From: Candidatus Nanosynbacter lyticus | GTDB lineage: Bacteria > Patescibacteriota > Saccharimonadia > Saccharimonadales > Saccharimonadaceae | Length of the DNA: 32,000 nucleotides | Assembly (NCBI RefSeq): GCF_030253515.1 | Contig: NZ_CP124549.1 | Span: 780,001 to 812,000 of the forward strand | Direction of reading: 5' to 3' | Part shown: positions 24,701 to 30,321 of the stretch, one piece after another | How positions within the stretch are numbered: position 1 is the stretch's first letter | Layout of the letters: the number at the start of each line of letters is the position of its first letter | Notes under the pieces: model-generated | The model's database searches: none | Told to the model about the DNA's origin: nothing | The model's input: the letters and a program-made list of their open reading frames with translations, nothing else | Translations under genes and position numbers: made by a program

Positions 24701-26065
24701 CTATGAGCGACGGCCTTCTTTCTTTGGTCGGCTTAATATTATCGTGAATAGTCCGGACAGTATCGCCGCAAAAACCGACCAATACATATACCGATAATCA
24801 ACCGCCACCGCCATAGGAACGTACGCCACGATATATATAAGACCCGACAAAGCCACTGCACAGGTAAGGCGTCGTTGCCTATGTTCTCGCACTCTCCTGC
24901 TCGTATAGTAAATGAAGACAAGGACAGCAAGATATAGCCATGGCTGAAAAATCAGAGGGATATTCGCCTGAGCACCGCCTTTAACATATGCCGCTAGACC
25001 ACTGATGGCATATTCATTCTTTACCGCGGCACCGACCTGGTTTTGCTCAATGCCGGGCTGAAAAATATACATACGCTCTGGTTGCGGAAAGAGAAATATC
25101 GAAAAAGTTGCCAACCGATATGATGCATATTTTATTGGATGTCTTATGATCGTCGATAGCCAATCATTAAATACATCTTGATGTTCGTTTTTGAGCGCTT
25201 CTCGCTGAGAAGCCGTTGTACATATGATATAAGAATTCATGATATCTTTTGTTTTATCGTGACAGGTGTCATGAATTTTTTTGTACATAGACCACCGACC
25301 GTGATGTTCTCTATCAAAATTAGCGACGTGAACTATATCATCAAGTTGTACGGCGGTAATCGGATGAGTTTTTTCGCTAGGCTGATTAATAACAATGGTG
25401 ACACCAATCGTTACCACTAAACCAATTATTACACTAGCAAGACCGCTCCACACAGGAGGTCGCTTGATTAACAAGCTCGGCAATACGAACAGGATAGGCA
25501 GTACCGCAAACAATGCGTTATGTCGTAGCGTACCAGCATAGAGAATCAATAATAGTGCCAGTCCGACGATACCATACACAGCAACACGTCCTAGTGATTT
25601 TTTACTGCTTATGATGAACCAGATGAGGATTACCGCCAACGTCAGACTGAATGCCATCTGAACATCTTTCCATATCACGCCAGCAATATTCATTATATTG
25701 GGCAGTAGTACAATTATGTAGACGGAAAGAGCCCATGCGCGGTTACGAGTGTGCCGATACACGAGAATCGACAGCATAAACATAGCCGCGACAAGCAGCA
25801 CCAGCTGAAAAATCAACATCGATGAGATGTGACCAGTTACTCTAATCAGAAATCCCCACAATCGCGTCATCACTGGCGGATGCCAATCGGTGAGGTGAGC
25901 TACGCCCGTGGCTTGCTCAAGCTGACTGATGGAGTCGGGTGACATATATCCAGGGTAGAAAACGATGACGAGCAGCATTAGCATACCTGCTGCTACTAAC
26001 GCAGACTGGATATGAAATTTTGAGAGGCTATTTTTTATGCTTGTGATATTTTCCGGCCACCGCAT
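24701..26065 (-). CDS. Polytopic membrane protein (candidate GT-C-type glycosyltransferase), 454 aa
   Basis: It has many TM helices. The first external loop reads YPGYMSPDSISQLEQATGVAHLTDWHPPVMT. A GAAGGTG SD lies 7-8 nt upstream of ATG 26065. It is the last gene of a 5-gene overlapping operon. Confidence 0.75.
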   Translation of the reverse strand: MRWPENITSIKNSLSKFHIQSALVAAGMLMLLVIVFYPGYMSPDSISQLEQATGVAHLTDWHPPVMTRLWGFLIRVTGHISSMLIFQLVLLVAAMFMLSILVYRHTRNRAWALSVYIIVLLPNIMNIAGVIWKDVQMAFSLTLAVILIWFIISSKKSLGRVAVYGIVGLALLLILYAGTLRHNALFAVLPILFVLPSLLIKRPPVWSGLASVIIGLVVTIGVTIVINQPSEKTHPITAVQLDDIVHVANFDREHHGRWSMYKKIHDTCHDKTKDIMNSYIICTTASQREALKNEHQDVFNDWLSTIIRHPIKYASYRLATFSIFLFPQPERMYIFQPGIEQNQVGAAVKNEYAISGLAAYVKGGAQANIPLIFQPWLYLAVLVFIYYTSRRVREHRQRRLTCAVALSGLIYIVAYVPMAVAVDYRYMYWSVFAAILSGLFTIILSRPKKEGRRS

Positions 26066-26861
26066 AAAACAACACCTTCAGAACGTGCATATTTCCCTTA
26101 ATGGGACTAATTTTTGTTGGCGTCTTGCCCTTTTTTGGATATGTTCGTACCACTGGCGTTTCGGCTGTCTTATACTGTTTACGGCGGCTGCTCTCGATAG
26201 CGAGGTAATAATGAAGTTCATAGGTTTGAAATATATCACGGAATACGGCAATGTCCGGGTCTTTGAGTAGCCTTGCACTGTAAGCACGGAAGCCATTTGT
26301 GGTATCGGTATGCTTCTGGCCAGCCGCGAGGCTTATCAGTGGCGCATGGATCAGGTGAAGGCCTATCTCTCTCGAAAGCGGCGTATTTACCGCCTTGCCG
26401 CCCGGTATAAACCGTGAACCCTGAATATGGTCATACCCCTGATCAAGCAGCTTAATAAAGTCAGGAATTCTCTCTATACTATCCTTGCCATTACCGTCAA
26501 CAACCACAACGCCTTCATAACCCTCAGAAAGAGCCCAGGCGAACGCCATTCTCATCTGTGCACTTAACTTACCCTTGCCCCTTTTTGTCAATAAAGCGCG
26601 TACGTCTTGAGATTTCAAGAAATCAGCCTCAAGTGAACCATCAGTGCTACCACCATCAGCTACTACAATATCAATCTGTTTTGCTAATGGCTTCATTTTT
26701 TGTAGTTGCTTTTGAACACGCTCTCCCTCATTAATGACGAAAATACATACACAATATTTATGTTTTTTCTTGTTTATTTCATTTACCTCAAAGTCTGGAA
26801 ACTCCCACCCTGGATGATCTCGGCGGATACGATCTTGCTTGTTGGTCGGAGCTTTTGTCAT
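26028..26861 (-). CDS. Glycosyltransferase family 2 (Dpm1-like, soluble), 277 aa
   Basis: CVCIFVINE...IVVADGGSTDGS...VVVVDGNGKD...GFRAYS are GT-A/GT2 hallmarks. It has an ATGA overlap with the upstream gene (26858..26861). Confidence 0.85.
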   Translation of the reverse strand: MTKAPTNKQDRIRRDHPGWEFPDFEVNEINKKKHKYCVCIFVINEGERVQKQLQKMKPLAKQIDIVVADGGSTDGSLEADFLKSQDVRALLTKRGKGKLSAQMRMAFAWALSEGYEGVVVVDGNGKDSIERIPDFIKLLDQGYDHIQGSRFIPGGKAVNTPLSREIGLHLIHAPLISLAAGQKHTDTTNGFRAYSARLLKDPDIAVFRDIFQTYELHYYLAIESSRRKQYKTAETPVVRTYPKKGKTPTKISPIKGNMHVLKVLFYAVAGKYHKHKK

Positions 26862-28964: not shown

Positions 28965-30321
28965 GTTTTCTCCGTTTTTTAACTATGTTACCAATATACA
29001 AGCCAACTACCATATAGACAAACAGAAGCAGCGGCATATAGAATACGATACCGTTAATGTGGGCGTGAGGCAAAGCATGTCCAGGCATAAGAATTAACCA
29101 ACTCAGTGCCCCAGCTAATGAAATGTGTAACGACCATAGGAATGAACGATAATACTTGAAGGACGGGTGTCGCCTCTTAAGATAGAATAACACTAAATAC
29201 CCCACAAGTACCCAAACGAGTATCGACTGAACAATCTCACCAAACACCCCCTTGATCGATAGCGGCAAGCTTAATGCTGGCAATAGCACATAGTTACCTG
29301 CGTTTATTGCTAGATACTGATATGTTGAGCCTCTATCTTTCGCTAGCTCCTCCATGTTAATAAATCGATTGGCAAATTCATATGATTCAGGTAGAAGCGT
29401 CTTCAAGTTACCAACAGCATGTGTTCGCATCTTTCTAATTCCCGAAAGCCCTCTCTCCGATGCCCGCTCATTAATCATCTTGAGAGCGGTGTCTGAGGAG
29501 TGATAGTAATCAGAGAGTGCCATAAAGTTGGTTGCGTACGCACCAACAAAGGCCACGACAACCACGACACATGTCATGACGGCGTACCTCCACAGGCTGA
29601 TAACTTTTTGTTTATTATTGACGAATTCAAAGAATATGATTGGTACAAGTACAGATATAGCAATTGTTGATATATACTCATAGCCGCCCAAAAGTTTTAA
29701 GAATAGCAATATGGTTTCACCGAGGTAGAATAGCCACATTTTCTTCGATGACTTACAGTATGAGTAACTCAGAAAGGCAAAGGCAAACGGAGCAAACATC
29801 AGCGGTTCTATCCAGTACATGTTTTGGGCGTAGCCGACAATCCACGGGCTAAATGCAACCAGTGTCGCGAATACTGCTGCGGCAACAAGGCCAAACAACT
29901 TCCTGACTCTAAGGGTTACAAGTGCCATAAGGGCCGCCATGGCTGCAGATAGAACTACATTAACCTTCTTAAAATATGACGGTAGTTTTGCATTGTCCTT
30001 TGGTGCTAGCGCGGTAATTATTCTCGCCTGTAGACCATATTGTGAAGCATAAGGTTTGAGCAGACTGGCGTCGCAATCTTCAGCCATCATGACTGAATTA
30101 TAATCTTCATTTTTAGCAACGATTAGCGGCCCGCTATAACCAGATTTTTCCTTGCAACGAGCCGTCTTTTCTACTATAGCCGATGAGTCACGCTGAAAGC
30201 CATCAAACCATTCGCGCCACAAACCGACTCCAAAAACATTGCCAAAGAAAGATAAAAACAAAACCACCCAAACAACGCTAAAAAACAGTATGCTCTTTTT
30301 TCTCTCCATAATACTTACCAT
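28957..30321 (-). CDS. Polytopic membrane protein with a large first external loop (candidate GT-C-type glycosyltransferase or polymerase), 454 aa
   Basis: One N-terminal TM is followed by a loop of about 100 aa (WREWFDGFQRDSS...YASQYGLQ) and then about 10 hydrophobic helices. It is the first gene of the 5-gene operon. An alternative start is ATG 30309 (MERKK). Confidence 0.75.
   Translation of the reverse strand: MVSIMERKKSILFFSVVWVVLFLSFFGNVFGVGLWREWFDGFQRDSSAIVEKTARCKEKSGYSGPLIVAKNEDYNSVMMAEDCDASLLKPYASQYGLQARIITALAPKDNAKLPSYFKKVNVVLSAAMAALMALVTLRVRKLFGLVAAAVFATLVAFSPWIVGYAQNMYWIEPLMFAPFAFAFLSYSYCKSSKKMWLFYLGETILLFLKLLGGYEYISTIAISVLVPIIFFEFVNNKQKVISLWRYAVMTCVVVVVAFVGAYATNFMALSDYYHSSDTALKMINERASERGLSGIRKMRTHAVGNLKTLLPESYEFANRFINMEELAKDRGSTYQYLAINAGNYVLLPALSLPLSIKGVFGEIVQSILVWVLVGYLVLFYLKRRHPSFKYYRSFLWSLHISLAGALSWLILMPGHALPHAHINGIVFYMPLLLFVYMVVGLYIGNIVKKRRKRA

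Follow-up and report, generated by a model that had tools for sequence, protein, structure and literature searches.

Why should an operon for the loading of sugars onto a lipid carrier contain a gene for an oxidoreductase that uses flavin adenine dinucleotide (FAD)? This question is raised by a 32,000-nt stretch of the genome of Candidatus Nanosynbacter lyticus (Saccharibacteria; contig NZ_CP124549.1, positions 780,001 to 812,000 of the forward strand), hereafter called the window, in which five minus-strand open reading frames (ORFs) run from 30321 down to 24701 and encode, in this order, a membrane protein (M1), the flavoprotein, two family 2 glycosyltransferases (GT2TM, which carries transmembrane (TM) helices, and the soluble GT2s) and another membrane protein (M2). 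The reading that we consider probable is that the locus specifies lipid-carrier glycosylation of the Gtr/Arn type, in which the donor sugar is remodelled on polyprenyl phosphate and then transferred by a glycosyltransferase of the GT-C fold. Homologous loci indicate a functional unit that consists of the flavoprotein, GT2TM, GT2s, a short-chain dehydrogenase/reductase (SDR) and a triosephosphate isomerase (TIM)-type barrel, whose genes are distributed here across three transcription units. The system is a widely distributed, uncharacterised variant of three-component extracytoplasmic glycosylation, and the genes concerned are the following.

M1: 28957..30321, minus strand; first gene of the operon, 454-aa polytopic membrane protein
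Flavoprotein (FAD): 27849..28964, minus strand; 371 aa, GTG start, DAO fold, core gene of the cassette
GT2TM: 26858..27862, minus strand; 334-aa membrane GT2 of the GtrB/ArnC family with a degenerate active site
GT2s: 26028..26861, minus strand; 277-aa soluble GT2 resembling dolichyl-phosphate mannose synthase (DPMS/Dpm1)
M2: 24701..26065, minus strand; 454-aa polytopic protein of a large unannotated family
M705: 22583..24700, plus strand; 705-aa glycosyltransferase with a predicted GT-C fold, convergent on the operon
SDRl: 21719..22480, minus strand; short NAD(P)-dependent reductase resembling extended SDRs, core gene of the cassette
TIM1: 20819..21700, minus strand; second TIM-barrel paralogue (AP_endonuc_2)
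TIM2: 19969..20787, minus strand; TIM barrel resembling ketose 3-epimerases, core gene of the cassette

The overlaps of 8, 14, 4 and 38 nt between the five operon genes, which a first-pass annotation of the window had reported, agree with the ORF coordinates, and so does its placing of the operon in an AT-richer block (GC content of 0.42-0.46 at 22-31 kb of the window, vs 0.47-0.57 at 12-21 kb). That annotation had taken the five-gene operon for the system, and had overlooked both TIM barrels and the convergent 705-aa protein. Which of these genes belong together is best seen in other genomes. A scan for the flavoprotein in one genome per species returned at least 591 confirmed matches, the best 80 of which were analysed by searching the window proteins against the six-frame ORFs of each locus. 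These 80 loci span about 13 phyla, and come from Saccharibacteria, other Patescibacteria, Actinomycetota, Alpha-, Beta- and Gammaproteobacteria, Myxococcota, Desulfobacterota, Cyanobacteria, Planctomycetota, Verrucomicrobiota, Bacteroidota, Ignavibacteria, Acidobacteriota, Chloroflexota and Eisenbacteria. Four partners of the flavoprotein recur among them, namely GT2TM, GT2s, SDRl and a TIM2-type barrel: all four lie within 8 kb of it in 59 of the 80 loci (59-60 by the count of contiguous cores), and 41 of the 47 loci that are flanked by 5 kb or more on either side have the full set. Gene order is variable, yet 259 of 266 partner genes are on the strand of the flavoprotein gene; the FAD and GT2TM genes share an orientation in 74 of 75 loci, and in 67 of 74 they overlap or are at most 30 nt apart, an arrangement that is far from chance. 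The concern that the flavoprotein might be a housekeeping enzyme lacking any conserved link to GT2 genes can thus be set aside, as it is bound to a GtrB-like GT2 across phyla, and gene order proves to be conserved in relatives at this point. In contrast to these core genes, the M1 family accompanies the module in 15 loci, the M2 family in 7 and the M705 family in 17; they are lineage-variable accessories, so that the system and the five-gene operon do not coincide.

The cassette lies beside a Bac_transf/GT4 locus in Saccharibacteria and beside Wzm/Wzt polysaccharide loci in relatives. At least one large polytopic protein is encoded within 5 kb in 55 of 63 loci, and of 60 complete cassettes, 26 have a gene nearby for a small membrane protein of the small multidrug resistance (SMR) or GtrA type. 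In Proteobacteria this is a 118-120-aa protein of the SMR/EamA type that resembles ArnE/F, and in some others a GtrA-type protein. The cassette is also the sole cargo of a 10.8-kb mobilisable-type Psychrobacter plasmid, pA22P4 (NZ_MN657058.1), which carries genes for the SDR, the TIM barrel, an SMR protein, the flavoprotein, GT2TM (as an unlisted ORF), GT2s and a 479-aa membrane protein, and no nucleotidyltransferase. Because the plasmid brings nothing else as cargo, the cassette appears to be self-sufficient given common host substrates, and mobile, which indicates that it spreads horizontally as a unit. Phage records contain no copy of it, apart from one unannotated 4-kb fragment with 35% identity.

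What kind of enzyme is the flavoprotein? It matches the Pfam family DAO (PF01266, E 3.6e-16), with GlpD/LhgO-like proteins as its best family matches, and its AlphaFold2 model (pLDDT 91.4) retrieves in Foldseek glycine oxidase (4ysh, 1e-19), followed by sarcosine oxidases, GlpO (4x9m) and L2HGDH, at identities of 11-16%. It is therefore of the DAO fold by both Pfam and Foldseek, and does not have the VAO/PCMH-type FAD_binding_4 fold; DprE1, with which it might be compared, is a VAO/FAD_binding_4-type flavoenzyme. Its relatives number in thousands, with identities of 60-77% inside Saccharibacteria and of 44-50% outside them, over the same 13 or so phyla; a lookup of the exact sequence gave no match. 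Two other roles, that of a polyprenol reductase and that of an amine oxidase acting on an amino sugar, were considered for this protein and dropped as primary readings, both in view of the DAO fold with its GlpD/LhgO-like matches and of the obligatory TIM and SDR partners.

The two glycosyltransferases had been described as a Dpm1/GtrB-like pair, and this holds for their homology and not for their active sites. Hydropathy agrees with the presence of two C-terminal TM helices in the 334-aa GT2TM (247-265 and 281-299), and with their absence from the 277-aa GT2s, as had been claimed. The Pfam model Glycos_transf_2 is matched by GT2s at 3.9e-9 and by GT2TM at 1.1e-4, just below the gathering score. 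When compared as a family profile with the Protein Data Bank (PDB), GT2TM aligns over its full length with GtrB (5eke, E 3.5e-54, 8-307 to 25-327) and then with ArnC (9hwj, 5e-39). In GtrB, D94 and D96 form the DXD motif for metal and UDP binding, and D157 is catalytic, its replacement in D157N giving an inactive enzyme (PMC4728340). In the GT2TM family, the D94 equivalent is Asp in 32 of 78 sequences and is Asn in the window; the D96 position is occupied by A, E or L, Asp never being in the majority; and the D157 position is Y in 21, Q in 15, T in 8 and H in 6 sequences, with Tyr in the window and Asp in few. GT2s is the most conserved glycosyltransferase of the cassette, with 46-78% identity across phyla and invariant ADGGSTDGS, DGNxKD, QGSRF and TDTTNGFR motifs. 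Its family profile matches Pyrococcus furiosus DPMS (5mlz, 2e-14) and ArnC (8e-10), and its NCBIfam matches are AglJ (1e-15) and dolichyl-phosphate hexose transferase (1e-11). The invariant DGNxK (D122, N124, K126) aligns to DADLQ of DPMS (D89, D91, Q93), and so represents a conserved, non-canonical metal site, the DADxQ motif itself being absent. These features suggest that GT2s is likely to be the catalytic polyprenyl-phosphate hexose synthase, and that GT2TM is a non-canonical, possibly non-catalytic, lipid-binding partner.

The remaining two core proteins are SDRl and TIM2. SDRl matches the Pfam family Epimerase (4e-6) and, with weak scores, the PDB entries of RmlD (8g22, 1.7e-4) and UDP-glucuronic acid (UDP-GlcA) epimerase (6zl6, 1.2e-4). 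It is present in 59-60 of the 80 loci, and its invariant residues comprise GxxGxxG (GYTGFVG), S84/T85 and Y109xxxR113, with Arg where the Lys of the catalytic triad is usual. We propose that it is a keto-sugar reductase; the first-pass annotation had named it as a candidate reductase partner for the flavoprotein, and as a conserved member of the module it fits this role. TIM2 belongs to the Pfam family AP_endonuc_2 (2e-27), and its family profile matches TM0416 (5e-17), D-tagatose 3-epimerase (2e-16), D-psicose 3-epimerase and also YcjR, a 3-keto-D-glucoside 4-epimerase (7e-11). E150, D184 and E246 do not vary within the family, and the conservation of H210 is 90% or higher; all four align to E, D, H and E of TM0416, and correspond to the Glu-Asp-His-Glu metal-binding and catalytic tetrad of ketose 3-epimerases, which points to a chemistry on the carbon beside a keto group. 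TIM1 (AP_endonuc_2, 2e-22) is 31% identical to TIM2, retains the E, D and E residues that are invariant in the alignment, and is found only in some Nanosynbacter lineages (loci L006, L007, L008 and L010).

A clue to the product is given by Escherichia coli, of which 8 of 5426 complete genomes contain the cassette. Strains 2012C-4221 and NCTC10973 have it inserted between the genes gnd and ugd, right after the wzm/wzt O-antigen cluster of the O89/O101/O162 family, in the order FAD, GT2TM, SDR, TIM, 'EmrE' (SMR), GT2s and a 452-aa hypothetical protein. By blastp, the E. coli proteins are 47% (FAD), 31% (GT2TM), 44% (SDR), 34% (TIM2) and 48% (GT2s) identical to those of the window, and the 452-aa protein, the only polytopic one of this cassette, falls in the M2 family (hidden Markov model (HMM) E 9e-70); judged by these alignments, the gnd-ugd gene set is orthologous to the cassette of the window. 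The O162 antigen consists of the O101 backbone with a side branch of 4-deoxy-D-arabino-hexose; the first gene after gnd is interrupted by an insertion sequence (IS) in O101 (Liu et al., PMC7685785). The same review, in which this insertion into the flavoprotein gene is connected with the missing side branch, describes the biosynthetic route as one that 'has not yet been identified', and had already flagged the O101/O162 gnd-ugd genes as candidates for it (PMC7685785); in a paper of 2026, their role is still hypothesised (PMC13168486). The claim that the system is undescribed must accordingly be narrowed, as it is uncharacterised rather than unnoticed. Literature searches did not find the gene combination in connection with polyprenyl or undecaprenyl carriers, and a transposon-sequencing (Tn-seq) paper on Saccharibacteria does not discuss the cassette genes. 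Six E. coli genomes have a near-identical cassette, and in 3 of them its region contains IS insertions (IS4 or IS3); in the one genome examined, an IS4 lies in the FAD gene at the 5' end. An in-frame stop is found close to the 5' end of the GtrB-like gene of 2012C-4221 (13117..14148 of locus L086), which is annotated as truncated; in NCTC10973 the gene is intact.

How could such a set of enzymes make a deoxy sugar on a lipid? By homology, GT2s would load a common hexose onto polyprenyl phosphate, probably together with GT2TM, which may act as a lipid-binding or presenting subunit because the catalytic residues of GtrB are lost in it. The DAO-fold flavoprotein would then oxidise a hydroxyl of the lipid-linked sugar, most plausibly the one at C2, which adjoins the anomeric phosphate and is also the target of DprE1. 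Oxidation at C2 is favoured here because a ketose 3-epimerase takes the C3 proton of a 2-ketose, which would let the 4-OH leave: the TIM barrel, given its conserved tetrad, could deprotonate the adjacent carbon via an enediolate, resulting in epimerisation and/or expulsion of the 4-OH. Reduction of the keto group or groups would fall to the SDR, at the expense of NAD(P)H, and perhaps to the reduced flavin as well. The finished lipid-linked sugar would be flipped, for which SMR- or GtrA-type proteins are available in relatives, and GT-C enzymes (M705 by its fold, M2 by association) would pass it on to envelope glycans outside the membrane. The orthology of the cassette to the gnd-ugd set of O162 makes 4-deoxy-D-arabino-hexose, or something closely related, the product that is most likely; this sugar differs from mannose or glucose at C2, C3 and C4 only, which are the carbons touched by the proposed chemistry. 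As a hypothesis, a single oxidation by the flavin, the loss of one water and the reduction of two carbonyls would together cost a net one NAD(P)H, provided that the reduced flavin is used again, and this would suit an organism that is not expected to respire. The complete chain of propositions is less likely than not, namely that the DAO flavoprotein generates a 2-keto sugar, that the TIM barrel removes C3-H and expels the 4-OH, that the reduced flavin and the NAD(P)H-dependent YxxxR-type SDR reduce the resulting diketone with no external acceptor, that a catalytically dead GtrB paralogue lifts the lipid-linked sugar and presents it to these soluble enzymes, and that horizontal gene transfer has carried the system over at least 13 phyla, among them the ultrasmall epibiotic Saccharibacteria, whose host-contact surface it would decorate.

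Several observations weigh against remodelling on the lipid carrier, or against the product proposed for it. The donor and mechanism of GT2TM and GT2s are uncertain, because both proteins have non-canonical metal-binding motifs. The flavin would need an electron acceptor in an organism that is not expected to respire. The link to O101/O162 is a correlation reported in a review, and the identity of the product in Saccharibacteria is extrapolated from it through proteins that are 31-48% identical. Four well-flanked loci have the FAD-GT2TM pair with no SDR or TIM gene nearby; they may hold a reduced version of the system that stops at the keto sugar, or have the partners located elsewhere. TIM1 and the nearby 319-aa gene may alter the product sugar in this lineage. 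A GT-C fold could be demonstrated neither for M1 nor for M2, and the window contains no intact flippase gene, only a GtrA-like fragment 16 kb away. The four loci with the FAD-GT2TM pair alone (L054, L063, L074 and L079) belong to two Eisenbacteria, a Pseudomonas and an alphaproteobacterium.

Could the sugar be finished before it reaches the lipid? Nearly all known bacterial deoxy and epimerised hexoses arise at the level of nucleoside diphosphate (NDP)-sugars, and it is conceivable that the flavoprotein, TIM barrel and SDR modify a nucleotide-sugar or sugar-phosphate in the cytosol, the GT2 enzymes then loading the finished sugar for GT-C transfer. The nearest solved relatives of the SDR, RmlD and UDP-GlcA epimerase, do use NDP-sugars, and a ManC-like gene adjoins the module in Saccharibacteria. 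Against such a route, neither the conserved core nor the plasmid cassette encodes a nucleotidyltransferase or NDP-sugar dehydratase; moreover, the flavoprotein gene is coupled to GT2TM in 67 of 74 loci, tailoring at the lipid stage has precedents in DprE1/E2, ArnD and ORF13, and no NDP-sugar enzymes are known among TIM barrels of the ketose-3-epimerase type or DAO-fold flavoproteins. We thus judge a cytosolic precursor rather unlikely. If remodelling on the lipid is retained, it might still be limited to epimerisation, with stereocentres of the lipid-linked hexose being inverted as by DprE1/DprE2, which is the version of the first-pass annotation, in the style of YcjQRS on glycosides, and the Saccharibacteria making a rare hexose epimer. 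The closest solved relatives of the TIM barrel are indeed epimerases, YcjR included, oxidation followed by reduction is an established way of epimerising on a lipid carrier in DprE1/E2, and identities of merely 31-48% between the Saccharibacteria and E. coli proteins leave room for another outcome. The sole orthologous cassette with a correlated glycan goes, however, with a 4-deoxy sugar that differs at C2, C3 and C4, and the high conservation of the core enzymes across phyla, of the GT2s and FAD proteins above all, suggests one chemistry, which makes an epimer as the end product distinctly unlikely.

Two further readings would change the role of the whole set. FAD-dependent polyprenol and geranylgeranyl reductases exist and GT2s resembles archaeal dolichyl-phosphate hexose transferases, so that the flavoprotein might act on the carrier itself, for instance by saturating an isoprene unit to give the GT2 enzymes a dolichol-like lipid; yet its fold is nearest to amine, alcohol and hydroxy-acid oxidases and not of the geranylgeranyl reductase or CrtI type, and it would remain unexplained why a TIM barrel resembling keto-sugar epimerases and an SDR are obligate partners, and why O101 and O162 differ in their sugar, for which reasons this role is highly improbable. 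Even more doubtful, to the point of being scarcely credible, is a locus that decorates no glycan, and makes a soluble glycoside, compatible solute or glycolipid with membrane proteins that are transporters or Wzy/Wzx-like polymerases. It could appeal to M1, which has no detectable family, to the 3 of 60 M2 relatives that weakly match a Wzy-type polymerase model, and to the recognisable small flippase being restricted to 26 of 60 loci; it is contradicted by the GT-C assignment of M705 and its proteobacterial relatives, by the position of the E. coli cassette in an O-antigen locus, and by the neighbouring Bac_transf/GT4 locus in Saccharibacteria and Wzm/Wzt loci in relatives.

Remodelling on the lipid carrier, followed by GT-C transfer, can be set against known systems. 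Like GtrABC and CsbB-GtcA-YfhO, the cassette combines a GT2 of the GtrB family with a GT-C transferase and, in relatives, with a small flippase, and has a conserved part for donor synthesis with variable GT-C partners, which supports the lipid-carrier logic that the first-pass annotation had drawn from these systems. It differs from them by the addition of the flavoprotein, the TIM barrel, the SDR and a second GT2, and its GtrB homologue lacks equivalents of D94, D96 and D157. Similarity to the Arn pathway lies in the ArnC-like GT2, the tailoring of a lipid-linked sugar (by ArnD), the SMR/EamA-type flippase of proteobacterial cassettes and the GT-C transferase; instead of the deformylation by ArnD, redox and enolate chemistry is proposed here, and there are no nucleotide-sugar enzymes of the ArnA/ArnB type. 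In E. coli YcjQRS, as in the proposal, an intact glycoside is oxidised, epimerised by an AP_endonuc_2 TIM barrel and reduced. YcjQ and YcjS are, unlike the flavoprotein, NAD-dependent dehydrogenases, and serve a catabolic, soluble interconversion of gulosides and glucosides that involves neither a lipid carrier nor glycosyltransferases.

A parallel for the redox step is provided by the DprE1/DprE2 pair, which converts decaprenyl-P-ribose to decaprenyl-P-arabinose. ORF13 of Citrobacter youngae O2 likewise converts undecaprenyl phosphate (undP)-linked ribofuranose, undP-Ribf, to undP-Xylf. Three-component systems of other kinds thus include auxiliary epimerases with undecaprenyl-P pentofuranoses as substrates, and the authors who described ORF13 state that they are aware of no further epimerases of side-chain glycosylation (PMC11127046). 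The opinion that an extra redox step has no place in known schemes therefore has to be abandoned, as DprE1/E2 and ORF13 are precedents (PMC11127046). What the cassette would share with them is redox chemistry of a sugar on polyprenyl phosphate ahead of GT-C transfer and, with DprE1/E2, the pairing of a flavoprotein and an SDR. In contrast, its flavoprotein is of the DAO and not the VAO/FAD_binding_4 fold, its donor comes from GT2 enzymes instead of a UbiA-type phosphoribosyltransferase using phosphoribosyl pyrophosphate, a TIM-barrel step of the enolase type is added, and the sugar is a hexose instead of a pentofuranose. The E. coli O101/O162 set resembles the window in its orthologues of FAD, GT2TM, SDR, TIM and GT2s, in its M2-family protein and in its situation in a surface-polysaccharide locus. 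It has a flippase candidate of the SMR type ('EmrE') and a single polytopic protein, whereas the window has M1, M2 and M705, a second TIM paralogue, the extra 319-aa gene and no intact flippase; a 4-deoxy-D-arabino-hexose pathway is, for that set, a hypothesis only.

If the model holds, it would supply the missing pathway for a rare O-antigen sugar (of E. coli O162 and Citrobacter), and a second, mechanistically distinct way besides DprE1/E2 to rebuild a lipid-loaded sugar, deoxygenation included. It would give a function to a conserved five-gene cassette found in at least 591 species genomes, and a role to the large unannotated membrane families M2 (2779 representative clusters) and M705. In Saccharibacteria, where envelope glycans and host-contact chemistry are essentially uncharted, it points to a specific and genetically tractable surface decoration. 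The orthologue in E. coli is an immediate experimental handle, and would provide a clear genetic marker that separates O101 from O162 for serotyping and vaccine work.

Which protein would perform the final transfer? The presence of a GT-C enzyme had been anticipated, in M1 and M2, for neither of which it could be shown; it is M705 that has this fold by prediction, and it is the only membrane protein of the locus for which this is the case. Its AlphaFold2 model (pLDDT 91.6, pTM 0.91), which includes a C-terminal beta-sandwich domain, retrieves ArnT (5f15, 1e-5), STT3 (8age_A), AglB (3waj), AftA (8if8), PglB and EmbB from the PDB in Foldseek, the top matches having E values of 1e-5 to 5e-3 and probabilities of 0.96-1.00. 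D73, in the loop after TM1 (helix 12-44; motif DFPFFHG), is at least 90% conserved, and hhalign relates M705 to a 1057-aa cassette protein of Pseudomonas with 96.7% probability. M2 has about 10 TM segments by hydropathy and a D44 in loop 1 that is at least 90% conserved, and its family comprises 2779 representative clusters at E <= 1e-3. No match to it was obtained in Pfam or in PDB sequences, even with a 60-sequence profile; in NCBIfam it weakly matches ArnT (1e-3), and its relatives give weak and mixed matches to the putative glycosyltransferases LA_3751/2 (6 of 60, 5e-7), to Wzy-type polymerases (3 of 60), PMT_2 (2 of 60) and WsfD (1 of 60). Comparisons of M2 with M705 and with M1 by hhalign (2-43% probability; 2% for the M705 profile) yield no evidence of kinship. 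By its association with the cassette and these sequence hints, M2 is a candidate lipid-linked-sugar:glycan transferase. M1 has about 8 TM segments and shares 100% identity with the Ca. Nanosynbacter lyticus protein NLML1_0883, and the search for homologues yielded only sequences at least 92% identical to it; neither it nor its family members have a match in Pfam, NCBIfam or the PDB, and the similarity to M705 by hhalign is weak (47% probability over 133 columns). PDB sequence searches with the profiles of M705, M1 and M2 gave nothing useful. A connection of M1 to GT-C proteins through a Polynucleobacter protein in an HMM network was withdrawn, the reverse search giving E 0.15 and the other link covering about 70 residues.

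Members of the M705 family, and the cassette as a whole, are found in Microbacteriaceae too (Protaetiibacter, Galbitalea, Microbacterium, Leifsonia and Amnibacterium; loci L015 and L020). As Saccharibacteria live on Actinobacteria, an exchange between epibiont and host lineages is conceivable.

Other genes of the window are the following.

319-aa gene: 18960..19919, in the minus-strand group beside the TIM barrels; no family match
ManC-like gene: 17838..18881, minus strand; resembles mannose-1-phosphate guanylyltransferase, ends the SDR-TIM transcription unit
517-aa protein gene: 12564..14117, plus strand; about 10 TM segments, no Pfam match
GtrA-like ORF: 11875..12177, plus strand; C-terminal half of the domain only
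GT2-GT4 fusion gene: from ~30350-30386, leaving the window at 32000, plus strand; divergent from M1

The only GtrA-like ORF had been called degraded, a fair description as it matches positions 61-115 of the 117 of PF04138 (E 2e-4, below the gathering score); against an HMM built from the GtrA-like genes that adjoin the module in other loci, it scores 1.4e-8. At the 3' end the ORF runs into the complement of a tRNA-Asn gene (12136..12210, minus strand), and it may be the remnant of a rearrangement at this tRNA. No counterpart of the E. coli SMR gene was found in the window. The ManC-like product matches the Pfam family NTP_transferase (1e-40) and the ManC beta-helix, and could possibly serve the supply of donor (GDP-mannose); its gene is outside the conserved core and adjoins the module in Saccharibacteria loci only. 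Farther along lie genes for a phosphoglycosyl transferase (Bac_transf) and two GT4 enzymes, with the gene of the 517-aa protein directly upstream of them; this protein is a candidate for the enzyme that polymerises or ligates the acceptor glycan.

The stops of M705 (plus strand) and M2 (minus strand) fall on the adjacent bases 24700/24701 with zero intergenic space, and no terminator-like hairpin was seen between the two genes; a scan for promoters and terminators barely exceeded the expectation from shuffled sequence, and is not used as evidence. The product of the 319-aa gene has no match in Pfam, NCBIfam or the PDB; it carries a GT-A-like 'VVIDGSPD' stretch, and its gene co-occurs with TIM1 only in some Nanosynbacter lineages (L006, L007 and L010). 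Upstream of M1, a seemingly ORF-free 1.7 kb corresponds to the first ~550 codons of the 717-aa GT2-GT4 fusion, which is 96% identical to its homologue in locus L006 and leaves ~30-65 nt between its start and the divergent start of M1.

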